A stretch of 64,000 bases of DNA, from contig CAZBAS010000007.1 of NCBI GenBank assembly GCA_964490395.1, forward strand, positions 7,208 to 71,207. Reading direction: 5' to 3'. How positions within the stretch are numbered: the stretch's first letter is position 1; each line of letters begins with the position of its first letter. Of the stretch, positions 1 to 64,000 are shown in pieces. The translations under genes were made by a program, and so were the position numbers. The notes beneath the pieces are model-generated. The model ran no database searches. It worked only from the letters and a program-made list of their open reading frames with translations, and was not told the origin of the DNA. This stretch comes from an uncultured Candidatus Saccharibacteria bacterium. Lineage in GTDB: Bacteria; Patescibacteriota; Doudnabacteria; UBA920.

Positions 1-84
1 GTAGGAATCGAACCTACATTTATACGTTATCCGACTTCGCTAAAGCTATGTCGGACAATGGGAGTGTTTTGTTCCTCGCCCGCC
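1..84 (-). ncRNA. Truncated tRNA-like element with a canonical T-arm (GTAGG-TTCGATT-CCTAC) at the window edge; the anticodon/variable region is atypical (24-nt hairpin CCGAC-N14-GTCGG)
   Basis: The reverse complement of 1-17 is a perfect T-stem-loop GGTTCGATTCC, and the acceptor 3' strand would lie outside the window. Upstream of the T-arm I cannot fold a canonical D-arm or anticodon arm, so this may be an intron-containing, type-II or degenerate tRNA. It lies 9 nt from tRNA-Arg. Confidence 0.35.
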
Positions 85-93
85 TGACTAGTC

Positions 94-168
94 TGGTGAC
101 CTCGATAGGAATCGAACCTATATCGGCGCGTTAGGAGTGCGCTGCTCTATCCATTGAGCTACAAGGCC
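94..168 (-). tRNA. tRNA-Arg (anticodon CCT)
   Basis: I folded the reverse complement by hand: acceptor GGCCTTG/CGAGGTC with two G-U pairs, D-stem GCTC/GAGC, anticodon loop CU-CCU-AA, T-arm ATAGG-TTCGATT-CCTAT, and an encoded CCA. Confidence 0.8.
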
Positions 169-4327: not shown

Positions 4328-4418
<91 letters not shown>

Positions 4419-4440
4419 CGGTCCGCCGGAGCGGACCTAC

Positions 4441-4620
4441 GGCGTGACGCAGTCCGCCAGTAGGGATGCGTAGGCGACCATCACCATCAGAAGTGACTAC
4501 GGCGTGACGCAGTCCGCCAGTAGGGATGCGTAGGCGACCATCACCATCAGAAGTGACTACGGCGTGACGCAGTCCGCCAGTAGGGACGCGTAGGCGACCA
4601 TCACCCATCAAAGTGTGACG
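4441..4620. repeat. Three tandem 60-bp direct repeats (two identical, the third diverged), immediately 3' of tRNA-Ser and a GGTCCGC-CGGA-GCGGACC hairpin
   Basis: Positions 4441-4500 and 4501-4560 are identical; 4561-4620 is a diverged copy. There are no intervening spacers, so this is not a CRISPR array. Confidence 0.9.
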
Positions 4621-19225: not shown

Positions 19226-19295
19226 TAGGACGGAATTTTCAATTTCTCCGCCCAAGGCGGACCCGCCCGGGCGGGCAATTTCTAATTTCTAATGT
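19226..19295. repeat. Dispersed ~55-bp repeat element (two GC hairpins CCGCC-CAA-GGCGG and CCCGCC-CG-GGCGGG, followed by a CTAATTTCTAAT motif); an inverted copy sits at 63941-64000
   Basis: The reverse complement of 63941-64000 matches 19240-19295 with about 5 mismatches over ~55 bp. Confidence 0.75.
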
Positions 19296-40001: not shown

Positions 40002-40262
40002 AGCTTGCTTCTCCTTTCAAGAGAAATTGTTTACGGTTTACGCAAGCTATGCCAACAGGCATTTGCTGCGCGCTGGTATATGATTTATAACTATTTAGTT
40101 GTAAAAGAGCGCGAAACACGGACAATTGTCCGCTGGTAGGTGGATTAAGAATTATCCTACCAGATATATGGCTTACATAAGCCATAAGTCTCATAGGGCA
40201 ATTCGTGTATTCATTTGAAACAACATTATAGTATATTATTGCAAATATGTCAATATATAGGT

Positions 40263-40300
40263 ATACATAAACTCTGCTTAATTAAGCAGAGTTTATGTAT
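40263..40300. promoter_or_regulatory. 38-bp perfect palindrome (ATACATAAACTCTGCTTAA|TTAAGCAGAGTTTATGTAT) in the divergent region between the orphan operon and the pilin-like array
   Basis: It is exactly self-complementary over 19+19 bp and no U-tract follows. A second 9+9 palindrome, TATGGCTTA-CAT-AAGCCATA, sits at ~40166-40186. Confidence 0.6.
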
Positions 40301-40599
40301 ATTATTGTGTTGGTGTATGCGCCAAAATAGAGCATAAATAAGCCTTGCATAGACTTAGCATTGTATCTTCCTTGTCTTGGTCTGGCTCTGCTCGGCTCAC
40401 TGTTCCGTTTCGACGTGCTATCTATATATAGCCATAAGTATGAACCATTATTTTCACCTCCCAGATTTCATATGGGTCCTACAGAACTAATCCCATATCA
40501 TTTCTACAATTTGTCTTTAAGTTTCGAGAGTCATTTACTGTACGCATGGAATATGTTCTGGTATAATTTTTTTAAAGGCAGTTTACTTTAAGAAACCAA

Positions 40600-41073
40600 A
40601 TGCTTAAAAAAATAAATTGGAAATTTGTTCGGTATCTGCTCGCATCGGTTGTGGTCGCTGTTGCGTTGTATGCTCCTATGGCGCATGCCGCAATAGTTAA
40701 TTGCGGCAATCAAGACGGGGGAGATGCAAAAGATGGGTGTAAGTTTAGTGACCTGTTTACCAGCGCAACAAATTTAATAAATTATTTTTTGAGTGGCGCT
40801 GCTGTTGTGGCGGTAGGTGGAGTAGTATATGGTGGTTTTCTCATGGTTACGTCTGCGGGCAATGCAAGCAAACAGGGTGCTGGTAAGAAAGCAGTTACGA
40901 ATTCGCTCATTGGCCTCGGGGTTATACTTGTGTCGTTTCTGCTCATAAAGAGTGTGTTTGTAATTCTTGGCTTTAAAGGTGGCGCAGATCCTTTGCAGAA
41001 CCCAACGCAATTTATAAATGGCCAGAGTGGAAACTTAATAGACTCTGGTGTGCCGAGCGGCGGAGGGAAATAA
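40600..41073 (+). CDS. Pilin-like array member 1: signal peptide, a short Cys-containing ectodomain, and the C-terminal VirB2/TrbC-like two-helix domain
   Basis: The C-terminus is VVAVGGVVYGGFLMVTSAGNASKQGAGKKAVTNSLIGLGVILVSFLLI (hydrophobic helix, polar loop TSAGN..K.G.K, hydrophobic helix). Confidence 0.6.
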   Translation: MLKKINWKFVRYLLASVVVAVALYAPMAHAAIVNCGNQDGGDAKDGCKFSDLFTSATNLINYFLSGAAVVAVGGVVYGGFLMVTSAGNASKQGAGKKAVTNSLIGLGVILVSFLLIKSVFVILGFKGGADPLQNPTQFINGQSGNLIDSGVPSGGGK

Positions 41074-41115
41074 GTTCGTTAATGCATTTTCTAAAAATAA
41101 ACTAAACAAGCTATC

Positions 41116-41967
41116 ATGACATTTAAAAAATTATCTATTATTAGTAACTCCATAGCCTTGCTCGTAAGCCTTGCTACAGTGGCATCTGTATGGAGCGCAC
41201 CTGCATTTGCCGCTGGGTGTGATCCAGATATATATTTTTCAATTACCGACCCAGTAACTGGCAACATTGTTACGCAAGCTCCTCAAAATGGTAAAGTTAC
41301 GTTTTATGTAAAACTTACTCCGAAGGGTGACTGCTCGACCACGGTAATAAACGATGTAGTAATAAATCAGCGTCTTACCAATGGAATCACCTTTTTGGCA
41401 AATTTTCCTATTTCTGATAAAAACGGATTGCGACGAGGGGTTGTTGAATCTAAATATACCCAGGGCGTAGATGGGATCCTCGACACCACGACGGGTAAGC
41501 CAGTACAAGTTGGTGGGAAGTTGTCGCTTGAAGGGGCCGTCAAATTAGAGGGTGAAGATAAATACCGTAATTCAAGTCCCACGCCACTTGCTGCGGTTGC
41601 TGCTGTTCCTGGCGGAGGTGGTGGAGATGTGAATGCGCCAAACGTAAACACCCCTGGTGGAAACGTAAACACCCCCGGTGGCGATCCTAGTACTGTAGGC
41701 ACTATTGGTACCATCTCAAACCCTATTGGCTATGAGTCTTTGGGTGCGCTTGTGGTGGCCATTATCCGTTTTCTACTTACTATGATTGGTGGTCTTGCCG
41801 TGCTGTTCATTATTATAGGTGCGGTGCGCATGGTTACCTCTCAAGGTAATGAAAAGGCCGTTACTGCTGGTAAGCAAACTGTTACCTGGGCAGTCATAGG
41901 TCTTATTACTGCACTCATGGCGTTCTCGCTCATTAGTTTGGTCCAGAGTTTAATAGGGCGTAAGTAG
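41116..41967 (+). CDS. Pilin-like array member 2: signal peptide, a beta-rich ectodomain with NVNTPGG repeats, and the conserved C-terminal domain
   Basis: The C-terminus is LLTMIGGLAVLFIIIGAVRMVTSQGNEKAVTAGKQTVTWAVIGLITALMAF. Confidence 0.6.
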   Translation: MTFKKLSIISNSIALLVSLATVASVWSAPAFAAGCDPDIYFSITDPVTGNIVTQAPQNGKVTFYVKLTPKGDCSTTVINDVVINQRLTNGITFLANFPISDKNGLRRGVVESKYTQGVDGILDTTTGKPVQVGGKLSLEGAVKLEGEDKYRNSSPTPLAAVAAVPGGGGGDVNAPNVNTPGGNVNTPGGDPSTVGTIGTISNPIGYESLGALVVAIIRFLLTMIGGLAVLFIIIGAVRMVTSQGNEKAVTAGKQTVTWAVIGLITALMAFSLISLVQSLIGRK

Positions 41968-41997
41968 AAGCGACACTAATCAACGAATTTCACACGA

Positions 41998-42744
41998 ATG
42001 ACACGAATAATAAAATTCAACCATACACTACGTGCGTTTCCACTTTTTGTTTTTGTTGCTGGTTTAGTTGTGGCGATGTGGTTTACCGGTACAGCCGTGG
42101 CGCAGACAGGTAATCCGTATGCATGTCCTACCCATCCACAAATTCCGACTGCTACCCGAAACGGTACTTGTGTACAAGCATTACAGTGGTTGCTCAATAG
42201 TAAAATACCAACGCCTGCTCTAGAAGAGAATGGCGACTTTGATACTGCTACGGAAGACAAACTTACGTTGTATCAGAAAGGTGCTGGTCTAAAATGTACC
42301 GACGGTATAGCTGGGCCAGAAACATGGAACTCACTTATTCCCGGTTTGAATCAAACAGGGGGGTGCGCTGGTGGAGGAGCAACCACCACTCCTTCCGCGA
42401 CAAACACAACTACGGGTGGAGTTTCTGCAGGCTGTAGTAAGATAGAGCAAAACTTTACTGAGTTTGGTGGCGGCACACCAGGTCCGCTTGCCAACAATTG
42501 CTATACTCCGGGTGAAGGAGTGAATAAAGTTATCAAAATAGCGTTTACGTTGGTTGGCATACTCACTGTTCTCTTTATAGTCATTGGTGGGTTTAGGTAT
42601 ATGACTTCTGCTGGTGATGAGAAGCGTGCAGGGAGTGGCAAGAAAACAATTCAGTGGGCGCTCATTGGTTTGGTGTTGGTGTTGTTTGCTTATGCGATTG
42701 TTACTATCTCCACACGACTCGCAACTACCAGTCAACTTTTCTAG
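41998..42744 (+). CDS. Pilin-like array member 3: signal peptide, a peptidoglycan-binding (PG_binding_1-like) domain, a Thr/Gly linker, and the conserved C-terminal domain
   Basis: The PGBD-like stretch is VQALQWLLNSKIPTPALEENGDFDTATEDKLTLYQKGAGLKCTDGIAGPETWNSL. The C-terminus is LVGILTVLFIVIGGFRYMTSAGDEKRAGSGKKTIQWALIGLVLVLFAYAIV. Confidence 0.6.
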   Translation: MTRIIKFNHTLRAFPLFVFVAGLVVAMWFTGTAVAQTGNPYACPTHPQIPTATRNGTCVQALQWLLNSKIPTPALEENGDFDTATEDKLTLYQKGAGLKCTDGIAGPETWNSLIPGLNQTGGCAGGGATTTPSATNTTTGGVSAGCSKIEQNFTEFGGGTPGPLANNCYTPGEGVNKVIKIAFTLVGILTVLFIVIGGFRYMTSAGDEKRAGSGKKTIQWALIGLVLVLFAYAIVTISTRLATTSQLF

Positions 42745-42859
42745 CGCGCAAAAAAATTAAAATATTCTACCTCCCTTAAAATGTGATATAATAATTATGT
42801 AAAAATAATCCTCTAGAGTTTAAAGCTCCTAGAATAAAAGGAGAGGGGGTGAAAGTAAA

Positions 42860-43267
42860 TTGAAACAAATGATGAAAAAAATAAATTGGTTGGGCGTTGT
42901 CCCAATAGTCGCAGTTGTAGTATTGATGGGTATCTCCATTATCGCACCAAGCTTTGCTCATGCAAGTCAAATTCCTGATCCAGGTTTGTGCACCAAGGTA
43001 AATGGACTCAACTGTACTAACTACACATTGAATGGTCTTATTATCCGTGTTATCAACTGGATATTGGCTATTACATTGGCAGTAGATGTATTGTTCATGA
43101 TCATTGGTGGTTTCCTGTACATTACTTCTGCAGGTAACGAAGATCGTGCAAAGAAGGGAAGGACTACCGTTATCAATGCTATCATTGGTTTGGTAATTAT
43201 CATCCTCGCATACGTCATTGCAAACGTAGTTTCTAGCTTCTTCTCAACTGAAAACTTCACCGCATAA
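42860..43267 (+). CDS. Pilin-like array member 4 (TTG start), with a short ectodomain
   Basis: It starts at TTG at 42860, preceded by the RBS AGGAGAGGGGGTG. The C-terminus is LAITLAVDVLFMIIGGFLYITSAGNEDRAKKGRTTVINAIIGLVIIILAYVIAN. Confidence 0.6.
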   Translation: MKQMMKKINWLGVVPIVAVVVLMGISIIAPSFAHASQIPDPGLCTKVNGLNCTNYTLNGLIIRVINWILAITLAVDVLFMIIGGFLYITSAGNEDRAKKGRTTVINAIIGLVIIILAYVIANVVSSFFSTENFTA

Positions 43268-43432
43268 ATAAAATTCTCCGTACTGCGTCGTGTTTTTCTA
43301 CTCATTTCTGTGAGCACGGCTGCAGCCACATGACGCAGTGCGGATGAATATATATTGCAAGTTGCAAATTGTAGATTGCATAGGTGTGAACCTTTCAATC
43401 TACAATGTGAAATTTACAATCGGAACCTGCTC

Positions 43433-43843
43433 ATGTTCTATACACCAAAAGTACGCACATTGGTTGCCACGTTTATTCTCTTGGTAACCTTTGTTGTCCC
43501 ACGCGCCCTGTTTGCACAAACAACAGGAACAAACGGAAACGTTCAGGGCGGTTTAAACGAAATCAAAAATCAGTTTAATTCTCAAAGCGAAATAGCGCAG
43601 TCGCAAACGGTAGGAGACCTCATCTTGTCCGTCATTCGAATACTGATTGGTTTGCTCATGGCTATTACTGTACTGTTTATTATTTTAGGTGGGTACCAGT
43701 ACGTAACTTCTGCCGGCAACGAGGAGCAGGCCAAGCGGGGGAGGAGAACACTGACCTACGCAATTATTGGTCTTGTAGTAGTCATTCTTTCTTATGTAAT
43801 AGTAAATACAGTGTCCGGTGCGGTGGACTCTACACAACTCTAA
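43433..43843 (+). CDS. Pilin-like array member 5
   Basis: The likely start is MFYTPKVRT... at 43433; the ORF-track start at 43355 runs through the upstream hairpin and inverted-repeat region. The C-terminus is LLMAITVLFIILGGYQYVTSAGNEEQAKRGRRTLTYAIIGLVVVILSYVIVN. Confidence 0.6.
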   Translation: MFYTPKVRTLVATFILLVTFVVPRALFAQTTGTNGNVQGGLNEIKNQFNSQSEIAQSQTVGDLILSVIRILIGLLMAITVLFIILGGYQYVTSAGNEEQAKRGRRTLTYAIIGLVVVILSYVIVNTVSGAVDSTQL

Positions 43844-43849
43844 AAATGT

Positions 43850-44722
43850 ATGATGAATACGACTTTGTTTAAAAAAATACTTCTATACCTCGGGGTTGCA
43901 GCAATTGGTGTATCTGTAACGTTTGCTTCTACCGCTGCAGCAATTATTGATATGCGGGCAACCGGTATGAGTGGGTGTGACACCAGTCTTACAACATGTA
44001 CTCCGAACAAGGTGCAGCAGGGGCAAATATTAGTAGTACGGGCAACCGGCGTACCCGTGGACTCGCTCGATGCTGTTCGTGTTGCATTTAACTTCGATGT
44101 AGATAATGGTTTAGGTAATGCCCCGTACGATTATAAAACTGATCCTGTAACCGGGGAGACTAGCTTCTTTGTAAAAGTACAGGCTGGAGCTTCGGAGATG
44201 GGTGTGGGTACTCACAAAATTGCTCTTATTGGGCAGGGTATACCTTCGACTGTGGTTGGGTCGCTTACTATTGCAGCTGCAACATCGCCTACAGGTCCGG
44301 TGCCGCCCGGTCCGACCGGCCCTGTCCCGCCAGGGCCAACTGGCCCCGCTCCTGTCACTCCTGTTCAGTCAGATCTGGAGTGTGCTTCACAGGGTCTTGA
44401 AAAAGACACTGCGACTGGTCTGTGTTTGCCTAAGAATCCTTATGCGAGCGCTAGCCCAGATAGCTTGGTAAAAGCAACGAGTGTTGGGGATTTAATCAAA
44501 AAGATTTTAAACATCTTGCTTACCCTTGGCGGAGTAGTCGCGGTACTCTTTATAGTGCTTGGCGGGTATGAGTACATCACTTCGCGCGGTAGTGAAGAGC
44601 GCGCAAAGAGCGGTCGCAAGACTATGACGTATGCCATTATCGGGTTAGTTGCCATACTGTTGGCTTTCATGATGGTAACAGTAATGACAAACTTGTTTAC
44701 GCAAGGGAAGCTGTTTAGTTAG
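43850..44722 (+). CDS. Pilin-like array member 6: signal peptide, a beta-rich ectodomain with PTGPVPPGPTGP collagen-like repeats, and the conserved C-terminal domain
   Basis: The C-terminus is LLTLGGVVAVLFIVLGGYEYITSRGSEERAKSGRKTMTYAIIGLVAILLAFMMV. Confidence 0.6.
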   Translation: MMNTTLFKKILLYLGVAAIGVSVTFASTAAAIIDMRATGMSGCDTSLTTCTPNKVQQGQILVVRATGVPVDSLDAVRVAFNFDVDNGLGNAPYDYKTDPVTGETSFFVKVQAGASEMGVGTHKIALIGQGIPSTVVGSLTIAAATSPTGPVPPGPTGPVPPGPTGPAPVTPVQSDLECASQGLEKDTATGLCLPKNPYASASPDSLVKATSVGDLIKKILNILLTLGGVVAVLFIVLGGYEYITSRGSEERAKSGRKTMTYAIIGLVAILLAFMMVTVMTNLFTQGKLFS

Positions 44723-47049: not shown

Positions 47050-47285
47050 ATATACGTATCTTGCATACCGCTGGAAGCCTATGGTACCATACTTCCAGCG
47101 GTATTTTGTTTGTACAGCAAGTACAATCCGTAACAGGGGCGGCAGGCTTAGTGTGCCTGTACCCACGCTAAGCGCGGGCGGTTAGCTTCCGCCGACCCCG
47201 CCAGCTGGCGGATATGGCGGACGAGAATTGCAAATATATAGCTGAATATGTGTAGGCTTGCCCTACGTAACTTCAGTGAAGTAGG

Positions 47286-47361
47286 GGGCGGTTAGCTCAG
47301 TTGGTAGAGCGTCACATTGACGTTGTGAATGTCACAGGTTCGACTCCTGTACCGCCCACCA
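47286..47361 (+). tRNA. tRNA-Val (anticodon GAC)
   Basis: Acceptor GGGCGGT/ACCGCCC, D-arm GCTC-AGTTGGTA-GAGC, anticodon stem TCACA/TGTGA with loop TT-GAC-GT, T-arm ACAGG-TTCGACT-CCTGT, and an encoded CCA. Confidence 0.85.
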
Positions 47362-47563: not shown

Positions 47564-48286
47564 TTGACGTTTCGATTCCAAAAGGAATCTAAACACACCA
47601 TGATAACGAAAGAAGCAGCTGAGCGCGTACTCGGCATAAAAATACAAAACCTCGATCTCTATATATCTGCGTGTACGCATCGTTCGTACTTGAACGAGCA
47701 TCGCAGTTTCCCCCTTCCTCACAACGAGCGCTTGGAGTTCTTGGGTGATGCTGTTTTAGAGCTTGCCGCAACAGAGCACCTCTATCGCACGTATCCTTAC
47801 TCAGAAGGGGAGCTTACGAACTTTCGCTCCGCGCTCGTAAACTATAAAATGCTTTCAGAAATAGCGGACCGATTGGGCCTAGAAGAGTTTTTGCTTATGT
47901 CTCGCGGCGAAGCAAAAGACACTGGCCGTGCGCGTCAGGTTATTTTGGCAAACGCGTTTGAAGCAGTGGTTGGGGCTATTTATTTAGATGTTGGTTTTGA
48001 GCCCGCAGCAGATTTTATCAATCGAGAAGTATTGCGAGAGCTGCCCGGAATTATTGCTACAGGCCAATATGTAGACCCGAAAAGCAAGCTCCAGGAAATT
48101 GTACAAGAGCGCAAAGGGGTTACTCCAACCTATGGTGTAGTTTCAGAAACTGGTCCAGATCACAATAAAGAGTTCGTTGTGGCTGTATACGTTCAGCAAG
48201 CAGAGGCGGGTCGGGGCACTGGACCTTCCAAGCAAGAAGCAGAAATTTCTGCCGCAGAAAATGCTTTGAAGAACATGGGTATCTAG
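47564..48286 (+). CDS. rnc: Ribonuclease III
   Basis: It has the catalytic signature ERLEFLGDAVLELAATEHLY and a C-terminal dsRBD. The likely true start is MITKEAAERVLG at 47600. Confidence 0.9.
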   Translation: MTFRFQKESKHTMITKEAAERVLGIKIQNLDLYISACTHRSYLNEHRSFPLPHNERLEFLGDAVLELAATEHLYRTYPYSEGELTNFRSALVNYKMLSEIADRLGLEEFLLMSRGEAKDTGRARQVILANAFEAVVGAIYLDVGFEPAADFINREVLRELPGIIATGQYVDPKSKLQEIVQERKGVTPTYGVVSETGPDHNKEFVVAVYVQQAEAGRGTGPSKQEAEISAAENALKNMGI

Positions 48287-48291
48287 TTACT

Positions 48292-48735
48292 CAAATCTAC
48301 AAATGAGACAAATATACAAATGTCTACAGATGCAGGATCTAAAAACAAACTCCTGTATGGCGAATTAAGCTATAAGCTTAATGGGTTATTATTTGCCATC
48401 CACAATGAGCTCGGGACGTATGCTCGCGAAAAGCAATACGGTGATTTACTGGCTCTAAAGTTAGATGAAAGTAATATATTGTTCCGAAGAGAGTGCATAA
48501 TTGGCGATTCAGGAAATATAGCAGACTTTATTATAGAAAATGTTATAATTTTAGAGTTGAAAGCAAAGCCGTTTTTGCTTAGAAGCGATTACGAGCAGGT
48601 TCAGCGTTATTTATATATTTGTAATTTACAACTCGGATTGCTTGTTAATTTTAGAAGTAGATTTCTACAGCCTAAAAGAATTCTGCATCGAGATTATTTG
48701 TAGCCATTTGTATATTTGTCTCATTTGTAGATTTG
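48292..48735. mobile_element. 444-bp cassette: perfect 31-bp inverted repeats (CAAATCTACAAATGAGACAAATATACAAATG at 48292-48322; its exact reverse complement at 48705-48735) bracketing a GxxExxY-family ORF
   Basis: The two arms are identical on reverse complementation. The ORF start ATG lies in the left arm, and the stop abuts the right arm. The cassette exactly fills the rnc-smc intergenic space. Confidence 0.7.
48320..48703 (+). CDS. GxxExxY-family protein (PD-(D/E)XK-like; the family commonly encoded inside 23S rRNA intervening sequences)
   Basis: The N-terminus LLYGELSYKLNGLLFAIHNELGTYAREKQYGDLLALKL and the C-terminus ...IADFIIENVIILELKA (E-hydrophobic-K) fit the family. Confidence 0.55.
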   Translation: MSTDAGSKNKLLYGELSYKLNGLLFAIHNELGTYAREKQYGDLLALKLDESNILFRRECIIGDSGNIADFIIENVIILELKAKPFLLRSDYEQVQRYLYICNLQLGLLVNFRSRFLQPKRILHRDYL

Positions 48736-53065: not shown

Positions 53066-53108
53066 TGCCGGAACATGTAACATATAGCATGTAGCATAAA
53101 ACATTTAA

Positions 53109-53138
53109 ATATCCCGCCGTGCGGGATATTTTTTTTGT
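53109..53138 (+). terminator. Rho-independent terminator after rpsP
   Basis: ATATCCCGC-CGT-GCGGGATAT followed by TTTTTTTT. Confidence 0.75.
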
Positions 53139-53193: not shown

Positions 53194-53222
53194 TTGACAC
53201 GAGATGAAGATTTTGCTATAAT
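53194..53222 (+). promoter_or_regulatory. Consensus sigma-70 promoter (TTGACA-N17-TATAAT) with a ~190-nt leader preceding the 1270-aa surface-protein gene
   Basis: TTGACA lies at 53194-53199 and TATAAT at 53217-53222. The leader contains the hairpin CCCACC-GCCGCTAAAGCTAT-GGTGGG at 53310-53335. Confidence 0.65.
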
Positions 53223-53399
53223 GCATGTACAAAAGTTTACAAATCCCTCTGGGAGTTGAAACACAAATAAAAAACAATTAAATAAGCGTTCCGAATTTAC
53301 GAATCACATCCCACCGCCGCTAAAGCTATGGTGGGCAAAGTCGAATATGACTCTGTATTCGTGCTTGTCCGACGAAGTTTTGGCGAAGTTGGATGAGAT

Positions 53400-56300
53400 T
53401 TGTATATTCGTTTCGCAAAGAAAACAAAAAGTATGCAATCTTCAGAGCCGGGATACGATCCTGGGAAAAGTTCTAGCGGCGCTACTGGCCAGAAAAAAGT
53501 GGCTGAGCGTCTTTTGTCGTTCGTAGGGCCACGCACAGCGTTCGCTGTGATTTTTGCAGGTATTTTAGTATCTGCTGCCCTTATTCTTGCTGCGTTTAGC
53601 ACCGGTCGAGGTGGTCTTGCAGTAAAATCTCTCACTAGCATGGCTGGGTTTACCAACTCAAGCGCTGGTAGAGTAATAGACCCTGTAAATGGCAAATGCC
53701 CATTGAACTACAGGCTCGATGCACTAACAAGGAAGTGTATATTGCCTCTTCCTCCAGAGCCAACCCCTCCGGCGCCTACTCGTGCGCTAAAGCTTGATGT
53801 GGGCTTTACGCCGACTGTTGTCGCGCCTGGAGGCTCATATACTTTTTCTGCCTCATATGTAGATACGAACGGCGCTACCCAGAAATACTCTGGTCTTTTG
53901 GACGTTCAGCTTAGACTCTGCCAAATTGCAAATCCCTCATCTTGTCAGAGCAGTACTGGACCATGGGGTGACTACAATGTCACAAATGGTTCTATAGTAA
54001 TTAACCTTCCTACAACAATAGGGGAGGGTATATATAACGCATCATTCATACCTCGCGGCCAGCCTGGATGGACATGGAGCAACGAAGCAGCAGTAACCGT
54101 ACAAGCGACTTCGGTAACCCCTCCAACGGGTGGCCAGAAAATAAGACCAATATCTGCAAATGCTTCTCGAGCGACCTATGGGTCTGCCATGAACGCAATT
54201 GATGACAATATCAATACAACGTGGAATTCGGGTGATGGTGCTCCTCAGTGGATTGAACTCGATCTGGGGCAATATTATTCCGTCTCTTCAATGCGTTTTA
54301 ATGTAGAAAAGACTCCAGGTGGGGAGGCTACACACCAAATTTATGCTGGAGCATGTCCTACTCCTACCTCTCTTGCTACTACATTTACTGAGAACTTAAC
54401 AAGTAAGCAGTGGAAAGACGTATCTTTTTCTGCTGCCTCTGTCCGCTATGTTCGCGTGCTCACTACAGCCTCTCCTTCGTGGATTGCCTGGAATGAAATA
54501 GAAACTTACGGAACCTCGGCAACGTTCACTGGTTCATGTGATGGCGGTACGCCACCTTCACCAGTTGGTTGTTTAACCGGCTCCGTTAACCTATATAGCA
54601 ACAATATTGCAGTAGGCACTACCACAACTGCAAGCTCCTCAGTCCCGGGTGTTGCTGTTACCTACGAAAGCAATAATCAGAGCATAGCGACTGTAAATGG
54701 TACTACTATTACTGCAGGGAATACCGCAGGAACGGCTACCATATCTGGTCGGTTCGTATATGCCGGTAGGACTTGTTACCTCACTAGTGCAACGTTAACT
54801 GTAACTGGCGGAAATGCTCAGGGTACTGTTAGTGCTAATCCAACAGATGTATATTTGTGTACAAGCAATGGTACTTCCAACCAGGCTACTGTTACCGTAG
54901 CGGTAACTCGTGGAAGCGGTAAGGTTGATGTGTCCGGCGCTGTAACCTTCTCTGGACCAAACCGGTTAGATGCTCCTAACACGTGGACGCAAGTAATTAG
55001 CCCAGGAAACTTTACCGGCCTTAACGCCACAGCAAATGGCCAGGCAAGTGTCACTATTAGTTTGAAAGACTACTTCACAGGTCAGACCATTGCTAGCAAA
55101 ACAATTACTGCACGTATAAATCCTCCAAGTAACTGTCCTCAAGCTGGTCAGTCCAGCCTAACAGTTGGTACTGTGTATGCTGCATGTAGCTCATCTTTGA
55201 GCGCTACCGCAGATTCCATTCAGGCCACCAGCGGTACGGGTTCAACTTCTCGTGTTCTCGGAAATGGTCGCATGTTGTTTGCCTTAGACCCAAATGGTAG
55301 CGCTTCGCAGTCAAATGTAAGCATTGGATATGCTACAGACGGCAATAGCATAAGCTTTACCTTGGTAGAAGACGGTAGCAACCGTGTCCTGGCTGGTCCC
55401 GTCACAAAGATAGTACAGCCAAATCCTGCTTGTTCTCCTACGGGTACCATTACTCCAAATACTTCATACGTAAGCACTTGTGCCTTAAGCGGTCGTCCTG
55501 CAAGCGTAACCTTGAGTGCTGCTATTACCACACCATTTGGTGAAGGCGACATAGTAGTTGGTACTGGTTCTTATCCTGGTGCTTCATTCGGTCATGTGGT
55601 GGCCAACGGTGGTCCAAAAACATTCACTGTGAGTGCAAGCCAGATGGATATGTATTCTGGTGTAACATTCAACATTCGTTCTACAAGCGGTAGTTTGGTA
55701 AGCGGGGCAGGTGCGGTGGTCTATCGTGATGATAGAAACTGTAATACCTCTACTCCAACTGGTACCATTACCGTTACTCCTTCAACCTTAGCACTCTGTC
55801 CTGGCCAAAGCGGCCAGGTAACAGTGAGTGTCACATCAAATGCTCCTGGTGTTATTGGAGCTGGTGGTGTTATCTTCGGCAACTTCAATGCGCCTGGTGA
55901 CAGTTGGCAGCGTACCGTTACTGAAACAACCACATTCTCAGGTAACGTTGGTGGGTTAAGCCCAGTTGCTATGGCTTCTAAAAATGTAACTGTGACACAG
56001 GCTAGTAACTGTGCGACCACCACACCGACTTATGATTTCATACTCACCGCTAACGACACCACAGTATGTGCTGTAACCAATGACACTGCTCTCATAGCGT
56101 TCAACGCTAGTGCGGCTAATATCCCCGACTCCTATCAGGCTAGTGGCAACGACCAAGTTATCGTCTCTAAAGATGGTCAAATCGTGTATGCAAAAGGATT
56201 TGTGTCGGTGCAGCCGGGTAGCTACGTAGCTGCGGGTTCGTATTCGGCTACTACAACCGGGGTATACTCTGTGGCCATGACTTTTAACGGACAGCTTCGT

Positions 56301-57212
56301 GGTGGTACCCCTCGCTTGGTCAATGTTTCTCAAAATTGTCCAACAGCTACTCCAAGCTATGACCTGAACGTTACTGCTAATGATACTACAGTATGTCCAA
56401 TCATCAATGACAACGCATCAATCAATATGGCTGCTACTGCCTTTGATATGCCAGCAGGATATGTATCTACAAACGCAGATTCACTCACGGTAGCAAAAGA
56501 TGGTCAGATTGTATTTAATCACGGTTTTGTTCAGGGTAATCCTGGCAACTGGACTGCGAGCGGTAGTTATACTGCAACCACTCCAGGTACCTACTCAGTA
56601 GCCATGAACTTCAACGGTCAATTACGACAGATCCGACAAATAGTTATTACTCAGAATTGCCCTGCCCCTACTGGTTCCCTTTCAGTAAGCGGTGGTACGG
56701 TTCCTTGTAACTCAACTAATGGTTTAGTAAACATCTCTATATCGGGGCAGGATGGTGTGCAGTATAGTGTTGCTCGTAGCGGTGGGTGGTACTATAACAC
56801 TACGGGTTCAGGTTCTACTACCGATATAGTTCCGTTAGGTACAACATATACCTATTCCCTTTCTGCGGGTAGTCAGTACCTTGGATCGAAGAGTGTGACT
56901 GGTGTGTCAGACTCAAATTGTGGCGGTGCTGGTCACATTAGCGTAGATTCTACTACGCTGATCCTCGCTCGTCAGCCAGTATTCCCATATGCCTGTGGTA
57001 TAGCAAGACAGGGTTCCATAACCGCAACTAACAGTGGCAATGTAAACTTAACCTTTAGTGCTGGCGGGGTATCTTATCTAATAACTCCCGGCCAGACTCG
57101 AACTGGTAATATGTGGTATACCTCCGCAGGTACATATACACATAGGTTGGTCACTGAATCTACTGGTCAGCAAGTTGATTCAGTATCAGTGAACGTTTCT
57201 TGTGTGAACTAG
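53400..57212 (+). CDS. Giant (1270 aa) cell-surface protein with an N-terminal signal-anchor, an F5/8 type C (discoidin-like) domain, a Big_2-like Ig domain, tandem ~105-aa repeats and a Thr/Ser/Gly/Asn-rich beta-rich body
   Basis: The discoidin-like stretch is ISANASRATYGSAMNAIDDNINTTWNSGDGAPQWIELDLGQYY.VSSMRFN. The Big_2-like stretch is YESNNQSIATVNGTTITAGNTAGTATISG. The tandem repeats are TPTYDFILTANDTTVCAV... and TPSYDLNVTANDTTVCPI.... An alternative start lies at 53433. Confidence 0.7.
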   Translation: MYIRFAKKTKSMQSSEPGYDPGKSSSGATGQKKVAERLLSFVGPRTAFAVIFAGILVSAALILAAFSTGRGGLAVKSLTSMAGFTNSSAGRVIDPVNGKCPLNYRLDALTRKCILPLPPEPTPPAPTRALKLDVGFTPTVVAPGGSYTFSASYVDTNGATQKYSGLLDVQLRLCQIANPSSCQSSTGPWGDYNVTNGSIVINLPTTIGEGIYNASFIPRGQPGWTWSNEAAVTVQATSVTPPTGGQKIRPISANASRATYGSAMNAIDDNINTTWNSGDGAPQWIELDLGQYYSVSSMRFNVEKTPGGEATHQIYAGACPTPTSLATTFTENLTSKQWKDVSFSAASVRYVRVLTTASPSWIAWNEIETYGTSATFTGSCDGGTPPSPVGCLTGSVNLYSNNIAVGTTTTASSSVPGVAVTYESNNQSIATVNGTTITAGNTAGTATISGRFVYAGRTCYLTSATLTVTGGNAQGTVSANPTDVYLCTSNGTSNQATVTVAVTRGSGKVDVSGAVTFSGPNRLDAPNTWTQVISPGNFTGLNATANGQASVTISLKDYFTGQTIASKTITARINPPSNCPQAGQSSLTVGTVYAACSSSLSATADSIQATSGTGSTSRVLGNGRMLFALDPNGSASQSNVSIGYATDGNSISFTLVEDGSNRVLAGPVTKIVQPNPACSPTGTITPNTSYVSTCALSGRPASVTLSAAITTPFGEGDIVVGTGSYPGASFGHVVANGGPKTFTVSASQMDMYSGVTFNIRSTSGSLVSGAGAVVYRDDRNCNTSTPTGTITVTPSTLALCPGQSGQVTVSVTSNAPGVIGAGGVIFGNFNAPGDSWQRTVTETTTFSGNVGGLSPVAMASKNVTVTQASNCATTTPTYDFILTANDTTVCAVTNDTALIAFNASAANIPDSYQASGNDQVIVSKDGQIVYAKGFVSVQPGSYVAAGSYSATTTGVYSVAMTFNGQLRGGTPRLVNVSQNCPTATPSYDLNVTANDTTVCPIINDNASINMAATAFDMPAGYVSTNADSLTVAKDGQIVFNHGFVQGNPGNWTASGSYTATTPGTYSVAMNFNGQLRQIRQIVITQNCPAPTGSLSVSGGTVPCNSTNGLVNISISGQDGVQYSVARSGGWYYNTTGSGSTTDIVPLGTTYTYSLSAGSQYLGSKSVTGVSDSNCGGAGHISVDSTTLILARQPVFPYACGIARQGSITATNSGNVNLTFSAGGVSYLITPGQTRTGNMWYTSAGTYTHRLVTESTGQQVDSVSVNVSCVN

Positions 57213-57318: not shown

Positions 57319-57669
57319 ATGGCAGAAGAACAAGACGCAGCATTCGTAGAGTATGTAGTTCGCGCGTTGGTCGACAACCCGGACGATGTACGCACCGAGC
57401 GCGTGGTAGATGAGATGGGTGTATTAATCACTCTTCACATCAACCCAAAAGACATGGGTCAGGTTATTGGTCGCCAAGGCCAGACCGCTAAAGCTATCCG
57501 CACACTTCTTCGTGTAGTGGGTGCTAAGCACAAAGCTCGCGTGAACTTGAAAATCTATGAACCAGAAGGTTCTCACCGTGGCCCTATGCATGGTGGTGAC
57601 CATCAGGATCATGGCATGTCCACTCCAGCACCGGTTGGCGCTGATGATATGGACGATTTCAAGATCTAG
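57319..57669 (+). CDS. KH-domain RNA-binding protein (YlqC/UPF0109-like) with a His/Asp-rich C-terminal tail
   Basis: The KH core is VLITLHINPKDMGQVIGRQGQTAKAIRTLLRVVG, and it sits in the canonical position between rpsP and trmD. Confidence 0.75.
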   Translation: MAEEQDAAFVEYVVRALVDNPDDVRTERVVDEMGVLITLHINPKDMGQVIGRQGQTAKAIRTLLRVVGAKHKARVNLKIYEPEGSHRGPMHGGDHQDHGMSTPAPVGADDMDDFKI

Positions 57670-57725: not shown

Positions 57726-58472
57726 ATGCTCATGAAGAAGCGGAAAACCATCTCTATTAGTATTATTACTTTATTTCCAAAGTTTACGGACCATTACACT
57801 ACCTTTGGCATTATCGCTCGCGCCGTTGCAAACAACTTGTTGAAGTGGCAGTCCATAGACTTGCGGCAGTTTGGGCTAGATGCCCGCCAAACAGTAGATG
57901 ACCGGCCGTATGGTGGTGGGGTAGGGATGGTATTAAAACCGGATGTTTTGTATGCAGCCATTGCTGCCGCAAGAAAGCAGCAAGCAGTAAGTAGTAAGCG
58001 CAAAGTACGGGTAATTTTACTCACACCATCGGGCAAGGTTTTTAAGCAGAAAGATGCAGTGCGGTTGGCAAGGTATGATGAGCTTATTTTTGTGTCTGGG
58101 CGGTACGAAGGGTACGATGAGCGTATTACGAAATTTGTAGACGAAGAACTGTCCATAGGTGACTATGTGCTTATGGGCGGTGAGCTTCCTGCGCTCGTAA
58201 TAAGCGAGGCAGTACTTCGTAATGTGCCAGGTGTGTTGGGGAAAGATGAGTCCGCAGTGGGTGAATCTTTTAGTGAACAGATGTTGGAGTATCCGCAGTT
58301 CACGAAACCTGAACAGTGGAAAGTGGAAAGTGGAAAGTGGAAAGGCAAAACTTTTAAAGTGCCGAAAGTACTGCTTACCGGGCATCATGCAAACGTAAAG
58401 GCGTGGCGCGCCCAGGAAGCGCTGAGGCGTACTAAAAAAAGACGGCCAGACATGTTAATTGACCAAAATTAA
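57726..58472 (+). CDS. trmD: tRNA (guanine37-N1)-methyltransferase
   Basis: It has ISIITLFPKF...IDLRQFGLDARQTVDDRPYGGGVGMVLKPDVL and a SPOUT fold. The ORF-track start at 57693 lies inside the terminator hairpin, so I placed the start at the downstream Met (MLMKKRK). Confidence 0.85.
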   Translation: MLMKKRKTISISIITLFPKFTDHYTTFGIIARAVANNLLKWQSIDLRQFGLDARQTVDDRPYGGGVGMVLKPDVLYAAIAAARKQQAVSSKRKVRVILLTPSGKVFKQKDAVRLARYDELIFVSGRYEGYDERITKFVDEELSIGDYVLMGGELPALVISEAVLRNVPGVLGKDESAVGESFSEQMLEYPQFTKPEQWKVESGKWKGKTFKVPKVLLTGHHANVKAWRAQEALRRTKKRRPDMLIDQN

Positions 58473-58542
58473 ATAAAATTGTCCATAATTGCCCAGAATT
58501 GAAATGGTAATTTTGGGCAATTATGGTCAATTTTGGACAATT

Positions 58543-59541
58543 ATGGGCAATATATTCACTGTGACACAACTTAAAACGAGATTAGATAAATTCTTGGTAG
58601 AACAACTGCCAAGCCTTTCTCGTAGCCAGATTCAGCGTGGCATAGAAGCAGGTGCGGTAGCGGTAAATGGGGTGGTGCAGAAAGAGTCGAAGTTTGTGGT
58701 GCGAGTGGGAGATGAGGTGGGGTATGCGCAAGAATCAATAATCAAAAATCAAGAATCAAGTAACCGGCTTGCACGCCAGAAAATCAAAACGCTTTATGAT
58801 AATCATGGGCTGCTCATTATAGACAAGCCTGCGGGGCTGAGTGTGCACCCGGGTGCGGGGGTGAAGGGGGATTCGCTCTCGGATCTATTGCTGTTGCAGT
58901 TTCCAGAAATATCCGGGGTGGGTGAGGCGCATCGTCAGGGCATAGTGCACCGTCTCGATAAAGATACGAGCGGGGTTATGTTGGTGGCAAAAACACCTGA
59001 CATGTATGAGTACTTAAAAGATGCGTTTGCTGAAAGAAAAGTCAAAAAAGAATACATTGCGCTTGTCCAAGGTGTGCCTGAAAAAGCGCATGAGTTTATA
59101 GATGTGCCAATTGGCAAGAGTAAGGCCGATTTCCGCAAATATACCACAACGGACATGCTTGAACCAAAGCCGTCCCTGACCGAATATCGTGTTTTAGAGG
59201 TTTTACCCCTACCAGCTACCAGCTATCCGCCCCAGGCTGACCTGCCTCGGGCGGGCAACCTGCTCATTGACAAAACAGCCCTAATTTCTGTAAACTTACA
59301 TACAGGTCGAACACATCAGATCCGTGTTCACATGAAAAGCATTGGCCATCCACTTATGGGCGATAGTTTGTATGGTGGTAAAAAGTCAAAGCTTTCTGGC
59401 CTTATCCGGCAGTTCTTGCATGCTCGTCGCATAGAAGTACAGCTTCCCGACGGCACCTGGATAGAAGCGGAGTCAGAGCTCGCAGGAGACCTAAAGGATG
59501 TACTTGTTTCTTTGGGCAGTAAAGCAGTAAAGAATTTATAA
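58543..59541 (+). CDS. RluA-family 23S rRNA pseudouridine synthase (RluD/RluC-like) with an N-terminal S4 domain
   Basis: The S4 domain is RLDKFLVEQLPSLSRSQIQRGIEAGAVAVNG. The catalytic motif is HRLDKDTSGVMLVAKT. The start is uncertain; the ORF-track start at 58489 runs through an AT-rich palindromic repeat. Confidence 0.8.
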   Translation: MGNIFTVTQLKTRLDKFLVEQLPSLSRSQIQRGIEAGAVAVNGVVQKESKFVVRVGDEVGYAQESIIKNQESSNRLARQKIKTLYDNHGLLIIDKPAGLSVHPGAGVKGDSLSDLLLLQFPEISGVGEAHRQGIVHRLDKDTSGVMLVAKTPDMYEYLKDAFAERKVKKEYIALVQGVPEKAHEFIDVPIGKSKADFRKYTTTDMLEPKPSLTEYRVLEVLPLPATSYPPQADLPRAGNLLIDKTALISVNLHTGRTHQIRVHMKSIGHPLMGDSLYGGKKSKLSGLIRQFLHARRIEVQLPDGTWIEAESELAGDLKDVLVSLGSKAVKNL

Positions 59542-59640
59542 TATTTAGACAATAAAATGTCTAATGTCTAATACCTAATTCCTAATGGAATGCTCCGGAT
59601 ATTTAGACATTAGAAATTAGTAATTAGACATTTCATTTAT

Positions 59641-60713: not shown

Positions 60714-60810
60714 AGCTCAAAAATCAAAAGTCAAAACTTCAACTCCTAACTTAAAACTGGTAGTATTACAAGTTTGTAGTTTTTGGTTGAAGTTTTGCTT
60801 TTTGAGTTCT
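60714..60810. terminator. Long AT-rich hairpin (arms AGCTCAAAAATCAAAAGTCAAAACTTCAAC and GTTGAAGTTTTGCTTTTTGAGTTCT) between the prx stop and the sodA start
   Basis: It has ~24-bp imperfect complementary arms with a ~40-nt loop. The position fits a terminator for prx and/or an operator for sodA. Confidence 0.5.
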
Positions 60811-60828
60811 AAGATTTTATTTAATTAT

Positions 60829-63940: not shown

Positions 63941-64000
63941 ACTGTTTTACTATTAGAAATTAGGAATTACCCGCCCGAGGCGGGTCCGCCTTGGGCGGAG
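63941..64000. repeat. Second (inverted) copy of the GC-hairpin/CTAAT dispersed repeat, truncated by the window end
   Basis: The reverse complement aligns to 19240-19295 (see that feature). Confidence 0.7.

Follow-up and report, generated by a model that had tools for sequence, protein, structure and literature searches.

The 64-kb stretch of an uncultured Candidatus Saccharibacteria contig analysed here (CAZBAS010000007.1; hereafter the window, meaning the whole stretch) begins with a short element that an initial annotation had read as an atypical tRNA-like RNA sharing its hairpin loop with the long leader of a giant surface-protein gene. The tRNA-like RNA does not survive closer analysis. 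What the first 84 nucleotides (nt) of the window hold is a truncated pseudogene of tRNA-Arg(CCT) into which a hairpin of 31 nt, the size of one repeat unit, has been inserted, and this hairpin is a member of a dispersed family that combines a conserved apex with covarying stems. We consider it likely that the insertion is a unit of a dispersed, mobile repeat resembling either the repetitive extragenic palindromic (REP) elements and their doublets (REPINs) or the Rickettsia palindromic elements (RPEs). An inverted doublet in the giant-gene leader belongs to the same family. The two loci would thus share a loop because both hold members of one repeat family, not because of a regulatory link between them.

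Both hairpins lie where they had been placed (CCGAC-TTCGCTAAAGCTAT-GTCGG at 31-54 and CCCACC-GCCGCTAAAGCTAT-GGTGGG at 53310-53335), and their loops have in common the exact 12-mer CGCTAAAGCTAT, or 13 nt when the next G is included. Their first two bases are not shared (TT versus GC), where a single difference had been counted. Across the window the 12-mer has three exact matches, at 38, 53318 and 57486. Shuffled sequences are expected to give 0.42 matches with up to one mismatch; with up to three mismatches, 24 matches are found against 21.9 expected, which is chance level.

The minus-strand T arm at the left edge of the window is genuine (GTAGG-TTCGATT-CCTAC, window 1-17). A Logan contig with an identical RlmH protein (L001) lengthens the window by 715 nt leftwards, and there the T arm is followed on the tRNA strand by CAAAGAG-ACCA. 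The closest genome compared (L004; RlmH 87% and Wzy-like protein 61% identical) carries a single tRNA-Arg(CCT) in the syntenic position and lacks the extra sequence of the window. Comparison with this tRNA resolves the left element, which reads on the minus strand, into four parts. Window 1-29 is the 3' part of an old tRNA-Arg(CCT), covering tRNA positions 36 to ~64 (3' anticodon-stem strand, variable region and T arm), with the last 11 nt of the remnant (CAAAGAG-ACCA) falling left of the window; this 3' block is identical to positions 36-75 of the L004 tRNA at 36 of 40 nucleotides. Window 30-60 is the hairpin, CATTG TCCGAC ATAGCTTTAGCGAA GTCGGA, which we call copy a. Window 61-74 (GAACAAAACACTCC) corresponds to old tRNA positions 22-35 (3' D-stem strand, 5' anticodon-stem strand and start of the anticodon loop), with 13 of its 14 nucleotides identical to L004. 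Window 75-93 (GACTAGTCAGGCGGGCGAG) is a junction or spacer standing where the old tRNA would have had its 5' acceptor strand and D arm. It is unlike the 5' part of the tRNA, and a search of the window and L001 did not find the old 5' half. A gapped alignment to the L004 tRNA gives a clean insert of exactly 31 nt, CATTGTCCGACATAGCTTTAGCGAAGTCGGA, between anticodon nucleotides 35 and 36. The truncated pseudogene (window 1-74) spans tRNA positions 22-76 and lacks the 5' acceptor strand and D arm.

Just 5' of the remnant, 19 nt upstream, lies an intact tRNA-Arg(CCT) of the G1-C72 'GGCCTTG' type (window 94-168, minus strand; called by ARAGORN and by the Rfam tRNA model, 63 bits), which is the functional replacement copy. 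The remnant sits between the Wzy-like gene and a gene for a 93-amino-acid (aa) protein, the same synteny as in relatives, and five relative lineages sampled via the 93-aa gene each have a single uninterrupted tRNA-Arg(CCT). In three of these lineages the tRNA is of the 'old' C1-G72 type and in one (L019/L020) it is of the 'GGCCTTG' type, as the sole tRNA-Arg(CCT) at the locus. The insert of copy a is found in the tRNA-Arg of none of the sampled relatives. An exact pattern joining the hairpin to the T loop had no match across one genome per GTDB species, and the chimera is therefore lineage-specific; a metagenome scan with RpsP for closer relatives returned distant ones only (at most 69% identity). 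Upstream of the intact tRNA, the window has ~120-150 nt more than L004. The intact tRNA is flanked at 79-93 and 170-188 by inverted GC-rich sequences (CCCGCC ... GGCGGG), which could lengthen the acceptor stem in the precursor and gave a spurious match to a microRNA model; they may mark the ends of a ~245-nt segment bearing the intact tRNA. Because no terminator separates the remnant from the intact tRNA-Arg, the remnant is probably transcribed as its 3' trailer.

A functional tRNA of unconventional build (intron-containing, split or permuted), or a molecule like transfer-messenger RNA (tmRNA), is almost certainly the wrong reading of the element. The T arm is perfect, with a loop of the GGTTCGATTCC type expected of a tRNA, and at the 3' end ACCA follows a stretch of 7 nt. 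Against these features, running tRNA finders on the leftward extension, as the initial annotation had proposed, gave nothing at the remnant with ARAGORN (tRNA and tmRNA modes) or with Rfam; the window and L001 hold no complementary 5' acceptor strand or D arm, nor any YUYUUUG 5' strand followed by a D arm; and an intact tRNA-Arg with the same anticodon lies immediately upstream of the truncated gene. The 3' acceptor strand of the remnant, C66-G72, reads CAAAGAG, and its G at position 70 makes a G3-U70 alanine identity pair impossible. We rejected a functional tRNA on the grounds that the acceptor stem is unpaired, unrelated sequence stands in place of the D arm and 31 nt are inserted in the anticodon loop, and we rejected a standard or two-piece tmRNA given the empty tmRNA and Rfam searches, the missing G3-U70 pair and an upstream space occupied by tRNA-Arg. 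A tRNA intron was likewise rejected, the host tRNA lacking its 5' third and the insert being only 31 nt long and present in no relative. The core of a bacterial group I intron takes up at least ~200 nt, and introns of the archaeal type have a bulge-helix-bulge motif where the exons join. The suggestion that the element might prove an ordinary tRNA once extended was thus half right: it resolves as a tRNA, but as a broken one.

Further copies of the hairpin were identified in the window and in related loci, where a fuzzy search recovered two copies (d and e), and six copies were used to build a covariance model (R1); a second model (R2) was built from 28 sequences. Copy a scores 47.5 bits with R1 and 45.8 bits with R2. 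Copy f, at 47253-47291 on the plus strand (GCTTG CCCTAC GTAACTTCAGTGAA GTAGGG), abuts a tRNA-Val(GAC) gene, its last base being the first base of the tRNA. R1 gives it 23.7 bits (E 2e-4 across the window); the 40.7 bits with R2 come from a model whose building sequences included it. Copy f is absent upstream of tRNA-Val in three relatives (L075, L077 and L079), one of which has an FtsH protein 95% identical to that of the window. In this 95%-FtsH relative (L075), a variant copy instead overlaps the 3' CCA end of the same tRNA-Val, and in L077 a variant copy lies 3' of tRNA-Leu. A weak, divergent copy at 47183-47229 on the minus strand (TCCGCC ... GGCGGA, with a longer nested loop) makes a marginal match of 15.9-17.6 bits with the two models; it lies 30 nt upstream of copy f and overlaps a 12-nt duplicate of the tRNA-Val 5' end (GGGCGGTTAGCT, 47176-47187), situated ~110 nt upstream of the gene. 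Copy d lies in frame within the trmD gene of L005, where it adds 9-14 residues (IKNSTVAKAMTDKQ) that are absent from TrmD of the window and of L006. Copy e, in L017, is fused to a degenerate copy of a tRNA-Ala 3' end. With the leader doublet described below, the window holds 4-5 copies, and copies have been gained or lost among close relatives at at least four sites.

Two of these neighbourhoods have further features. In L017 (780-935), an exact 20-nt copy of the tRNA-Ala(GGC) 3' end lies ~240 nt downstream of the gene, with the degenerate copy on hairpin e as a third; the arrangement resembles repeated integration or recombination scars. Just downstream of tRNA-Val in the window, at 47564-48286, is an RNase III gene (identified from the Pfam domains of its L075 orthologue), which adjoins two repeat copies.

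The third exact 12-mer of the window (57486-57497, plus strand) lies outside the family. It falls in a KH-domain (KhpA-like) gene without a flanking stem, gives a partial R1 match of 9 bits, encodes T-A-K-A-I and recurs with one or two mismatches in many distant KH genes. We rejected it as a third site, ascribing it to coding constraint or coincidence.

The hairpin family extends well beyond Saccharibacteria. A degenerate pattern (TTGYCCNNCRTAGCTTTNRCGNNGNNGGR) gave 27 matches in 24 viral loci of IMG/VR, compared with none for a control in which the same loop letters were permuted, so that one apical sequence is common to 24 viral loci drawn from many metagenomes and to Saccharibacteria. With R2, we obtained 88 matches at E <= 1 in ~344 kb and, in a second search at E <= 0.001, 62 copies (53 distinct) in 27 loci totalling ~288 kb; the highest density was ~12 copies in a single 14.5-kb locus. 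The family consensus is CTTG-YCCNNC-GTAGCTTTAGCGAA-GNNGGR, with a variable stem of 6 bp and a unit of ~30-40 nt. The private link that had been drawn between the tRNA-like locus and the giant gene dissolves accordingly, as the motif also occurs next to tRNA-Val, in the trmD gene of a relative and, dozens of times, in phage contigs.

The proposal that the stems are compensatory is borne out on a much larger sample. Among 28 family members, 96.4% of the stem cells pair, and 33 cells show double changes compared with 13.2 in shuffles (none of 500 shuffles as high). The covariation score is 0.50 versus 0.17 when shuffled (again 0/500 as high), and slid controls reach at most 0.11. Three of the six stem pairs were set by the search pattern; the remaining three, which were free or partly free, carry all of the covariation. 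Structure is also evident within the loop, where positions 4-5 and 10-11 form a small 2-bp helix that itself covaries, G-C having changed to A-T independently in copy f and in L071, with GCC..GGC variants also seen. The first and last loop bases co-vary as well (G..A in 33 cases versus A..C or A..A). As initially argued, a conserved loop on covarying stems marks a constrained hairpin motif, here one with a large family and strong covariation. The possibility, raised at the same time, of a low-complexity word without stem covariation does not fit, since the word is not of low complexity and the stems covary.

No existing family accounts for the hairpin. At gathering score, Rfam 15 matched only tRNAs in the window, and both loci were empty in E-value mode; nor did Rfam match anything in ~144 kb of hairpin-rich viral loci. 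A BLAST search of the consensus hairpin against cultured phage and plasmid collections returned only chance-level matches (E 4-5), and literature searches (by sequence, encoded peptides, tRNA introns of the candidate phyla radiation (CPR) and palindromic repeats) yielded no description of the family. This repeat family thus appears to be previously undescribed.

The leader of the giant gene holds two copies. The initial annotation gave this gene 1270 aa, the length that results from a TTG; its start is instead ATG 53433, which gives 1259 aa and makes a database protein 100% identical over 100% of its length. A sigma-70-type consensus promoter (53194-53222, plus strand; TTGACA-17-TATAAT, matching at 12 of 12 hexamer positions and with TG before the second hexamer) directly follows the rpsP terminator (53107-53131) and heads the ~200-nt leader. 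Downstream, copy c (53305-53343, minus strand; 44.6 bits with R1, 44.4 with R2) forms the 5' arm, with the hairpin 53310-53335 as its core, and copy b (53360-53398, plus strand; GCTTG TCCGAC GAAGTTTTGGCGAA GTTGGA at 53363-53393; 45.6 bits with R1, 43.6 with R2) forms the 3' arm of one long hairpin in the 5' untranslated region (53286-53419, plus strand), which ends 13 nt before the start codon. The predicted minimum free energy of this hairpin is -66 kcal/mol (z = -5.6), and none of 200 shuffles folds as well. The motif had seemed to lie on the same DNA strand at both loci, a puzzle in that the tRNA-like element reads on the opposite strand. Same-strand placement holds for copy c but not for the leader as a whole, which has one copy per orientation, and the puzzle is resolved because the doublet holds both orientations, pairing into one long hairpin.

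The doublet is common to the L005/L075 lineage, which has the same copy c. Aligned to the minus strand of the left element, the copy b arm scores 51, compared with 18.9 +/- 3.05 for shuffles. We rejected the idea that homology between the leader and the tRNA 3' half extends past the hairpin, which itself accounts for most of the score of 51; the flanks agree at ~13/20, which is no more than suggestive, and some of this agreement (GAAAACAAAAAG) comes from ancestral leader sequence that L006 has too.

Two side observations concern the same leader and gene. At the very 5' end of the giant-gene transcript, a small hairpin (GTTTACAAATCCCTCTGGGAGTTGAAAC, 53235-53262) is kept in L005 and L006, with a central loop that varies (TCT/GCTA/ACTA), and is weakly similar to the clustered regularly interspaced short palindromic repeat (CRISPR) CRISPR-DR63 (18.9 bits, E 2.1). 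Its conservation exceeds that of the doublet, and regulation through the leader may in fact depend on this small hairpin. The large surface protein encoded between rpsP and the KH-domain gene (window 53433-57212; compared in L005, L006, L075 and L079) varies among relatives, being either an F5/8-type-C protein of 1037-1283 aa or, in L079, one of 630 aa whose only Pfam matches, to beta-helix/NosD, are weak or faint. This slot is a variable cargo site within a conserved ribosomal-protein operon.

The 14.5-kb locus and one other are genuine tailed phages, as shown by their terminase, portal, protease, scaffold, major head and tail genes. Phage copies mostly occupy short spacers between co-directional genes and often immediately precede a ribosome-binding site and start codon. 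Where the flanking genes are co-directional, intergenic copies occur in both orientations (16 antisense, 8 sense), and inverted doublets are not confined to the leader, with others at L064 10457/10493 and L073 4423/4450. Some copies are in frame in long open reading frames, as in the portal gene of L064/L062, which encodes SGSAKATQDK across the hairpin. Two phages that are ~85% identical both keep the portal copy and one of the spacer copies. A family member is present in each of them at another spacer as well, but there the two copies face opposite ways and their stems differ. The proteins of the window have essentially no similarity to those of the phage loci.

A probable history of the left element begins with the original tRNA-Arg(CCT) gene of the lineage, of which window 1-74 is the leftover. 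A ~245-nt segment bearing a different, complete tRNA-Arg(CCT), of a type known from other Saccharibacteria, probably overwrote the old gene at its 5' end (acceptor strand and D arm), leaving its 3' two-thirds within the 3' trailer of the new tRNA. The hairpin unit may spread by insertion as a folded single-stranded hairpin, with an enzyme supplied in trans that recognises the conserved apex, which would allow stems to change freely as long as they pair. Any effect of the leader doublet on the giant gene, through mRNA stability or translation, would then be a side effect.

Several observations weigh against a mobile repeat of this kind. No transposase, RAYT (REP-associated tyrosine transposase) or integrase was found linked to the repeats, the window proteins not having been scanned for Y1 transposases. 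A PHROG 'transposase' match in L064 has no Pfam support, and annotation of the hairpin-rich phage loci with PHROG and Pfam revealed no credible candidate for either a transposase or a nuclease. The tRNA-Arg insertion shows no target-site duplication, and either the replacement or the insertion may have come first there. The retention of hairpins between ~85% identical phages means that many copies are old rather than recent insertions. In the giant-gene leader, L006 has an unrelated long hairpin at the same place, which suggests possible selection for a hairpin per se at this position. Finally, the 14-nt apex is conserved over contigs of 44-73% local GC, and this conservation argues for recognition or function over purely selfish spread, classical REPs being usually species-specific.

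These points bear on a serious rival, possible though clearly less probable than the mobile repeat and not exclusive of it, in which the hairpin is first of all a cis-element with a function, namely a structured motif in RNA or single-stranded DNA that a conserved protein binds or cuts, and its spread is secondary. Such an element could serve as an RNA-processing or RNA-stabilising site or in translational control, between phage genes, next to tRNA precursors and in the giant-gene leader. The near-invariant apex on covarying stems, the covarying inner-loop helix and terminal loop bases, the position of phage copies in short spacers before ribosome-binding sites, the retention of orthologous copies between diverged phages and the RNase III gene adjoining tRNA-Val are all consistent with a function of this type. 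It is harder to reconcile with the occurrence of copies in both orientations relative to transcription, the purine-rich GUA/GAA version being antisense in ~2/3 of intergenic cases, with the flip of orientation at one orthologous site, with copies in coding regions and in a dead tRNA, and with the lineage-specific distribution of the window copies; no partner protein was found and there is no Rfam family. On the RNA level, the apex reads C-GUA-GC-UUUA-GC-GAA-G, with GUA opposite GAA around a short capped helix. Judged from sequence only, this presumably resembles the AGUA/GAA core of the loop-E/sarcin-ricin internal loop, a lead rather than an assignment. It differs from that loop in being symmetric (3x3) and without the extra 5' A, and the strand that bears it is often antisense. 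Tentatively, the apex could be a recognition structure for a protein common to Saccharibacteria-like bacteria and phages, either a novel type of mobilisation enzyme that targets hairpins or a processing or regulatory factor.

Two other explanations were weighed against the mobile-repeat reading. One sees in the left element and the leader copy the scars left by a prophage or another integrative element that targets tRNA genes, with the hairpin as a retained element end beside an attachment (att) core in the anticodon loop. The two T-arm/3'-end copies, in direct orientation and 104 nt apart, invite this idea, as do the recurrence of hairpins by partial tRNA duplications (12 nt of tRNA-Val; the 20-nt and degenerate tRNA-Ala copies in L017), the weak alignment of the leader 3' arm past the hairpin into the tRNA 3' half and the high density of hairpins in tailed-phage contigs. 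Between the two copies there are only the 19-nt spacer, tRNA positions 22-35 and the 31-nt hairpin, with no integrase seen. The insert, however, is exactly one 31-nt unit with contiguous tRNA halves on either side, which deletion of a prophage would not leave, and differences between the intact tRNA and the remnant run along the entire sequence instead of being limited to the part 3' of a crossover point. No integrase was found nearby, the window proteins are essentially unlike those of the phage loci, and the trmD and portal-gene copies are not att sites. We therefore regard integration scars as unlikely. To the other explanation we give very little credence: the remnant, co-transcribed with tRNA-Arg, would act in trans through its loop (ATAGCTTTAGCG) as a regulatory antisense RNA, forming a kissing complex with the loop of the leader 5' arm and perhaps with the KH-gene mRNA. 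The complementarity is perfect over 12 nt (13 with the adjacent stem G), and the absence of a terminator after tRNA-Arg would permit the transcript, but members of the family in opposite orientation are complementary by construction. Moreover, the remnant exists in this lineage only whereas the leader doublet is common to L005/L075, the leader 5' arm is already paired internally, and the KH match is a coding coincidence.

Comparison with known systems places the family near, and outside, two classes of palindromic repeat. In proteobacteria, REP elements and REPINs are reportedly mobilised by RAYT transposases. REP families conserve the palindrome together with a 5' GTAG and are usually species-specific. 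The hairpins resemble REP elements and REPINs in being short imperfect palindromes, mostly intergenic and in both orientations, that are gained and lost between relatives and occur both as singlets and as inverted doublets that fold into longer structures (the leader, L064 and L073). They differ in that the family conserves a 14-nt apex and varies its stems, is common to unrelated phage contigs and Saccharibacteria rather than confined to one species or genus, and has a low bacterial copy number (4-5 in 64 kb) with no linked RAYT, subject to the unscanned window proteins. RPEs are said to be ~100-150 bp long and found in Rickettsia only. Like them, the hairpin units insert in frame in protein genes, in RNA genes and in spacers (here trmD of L005, the phage portal gene and tRNA-Arg); unlike them, the unit is ~31-39 nt and occurs in phages and CPR bacteria (Saccharibacteria). 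The left element itself is comparable to the tRNA remnants left by gene replacement or integration, in which a displaced 3' part decays beside an intact copy with the same anticodon, and is set apart by a repeat in the anticodon loop and by the lack of an integrase or island between the copies.

Structured repeats of phages and guide systems were also compared. In the promoter/stem-loop (PeSL) cassettes, which are confined to T4-type phages, a stem-loop is coupled to an early promoter (PMC2839356). Their stem-loops are likewise repeated in phage spacers and, according to the same account, are tied to gene insertion, deletion and replacement (PMC2839356); set beside the cassettes so described, the hairpin unit has no promoter within it. 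Tandem interspersed guide RNA (TIGR) arrays are regular stem-loop arrays with variable spacers in the loops (PMC12045711). We rejected guide arrays of the TIGR or CRISPR type, given that here the loop is conserved, the stems vary and the copies are solitary or paired.

Other repeats of the window were noted in passing. Three tandem 60-nt repeats (two identical, one 88%) occupy 4437-4616, right after tRNA-Ser(CGA) at 4328-4417. Long AT-rich inverted repeats made of short words (such as GAATTA, CGAAT and GTCTAAT) fill many spacers, at 40226-40337, 48292-48735, 58458-58551, 59551-59637 and 60716-60813. Relatives have other palindromes at the same spots (for example upstream of tRNA-Val in L075 and in the leader of L006), and these differing palindromes suggest a fast turnover of intergenic hairpins in the clade. 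A GC-rich repeat (CTCCGCCCAAGGCGGACCCGCCCGGGCGGGCAATTTCTAATTTC) has three copies, at 19246-19293 (plus), 59226-59258 (plus) and 63952-64000 (minus); it looks like a double hairpin with a T-rich tail and may be a repeated terminator, and its TCCGCC/GGCGGA stem and CAAG are reminiscent of the hairpin family. Upstream of ftsH, L075 (4376-9262) and L079 carry genes with weak Pfam matches resembling pilins of type IV secretion systems, to which the window genes at 40600-44722 are probably orthologous, judging by synteny.

For annotation, these observations show that a tRNA remnant combined with a repeat insertion can mimic an exotic tRNA-like RNA. More broadly, a compact hairpin repeat is common to the ultra-small genomes of Saccharibacteria and to many uncultured tailed phages, in which it is far denser. 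If mobile, the repeat would count as a small mobile element of a new kind and would mark exchange between phages and their hosts among CPR bacteria. If functional, it would be a new cis-signal in phage operons that is also present in the leader of a variable giant surface-protein gene. Should the apex be recognised by a protein common to the two groups, the family would represent a new class of structured signal that punctuates phage operons as well as tRNA and surface-protein transcripts in CPR bacteria.

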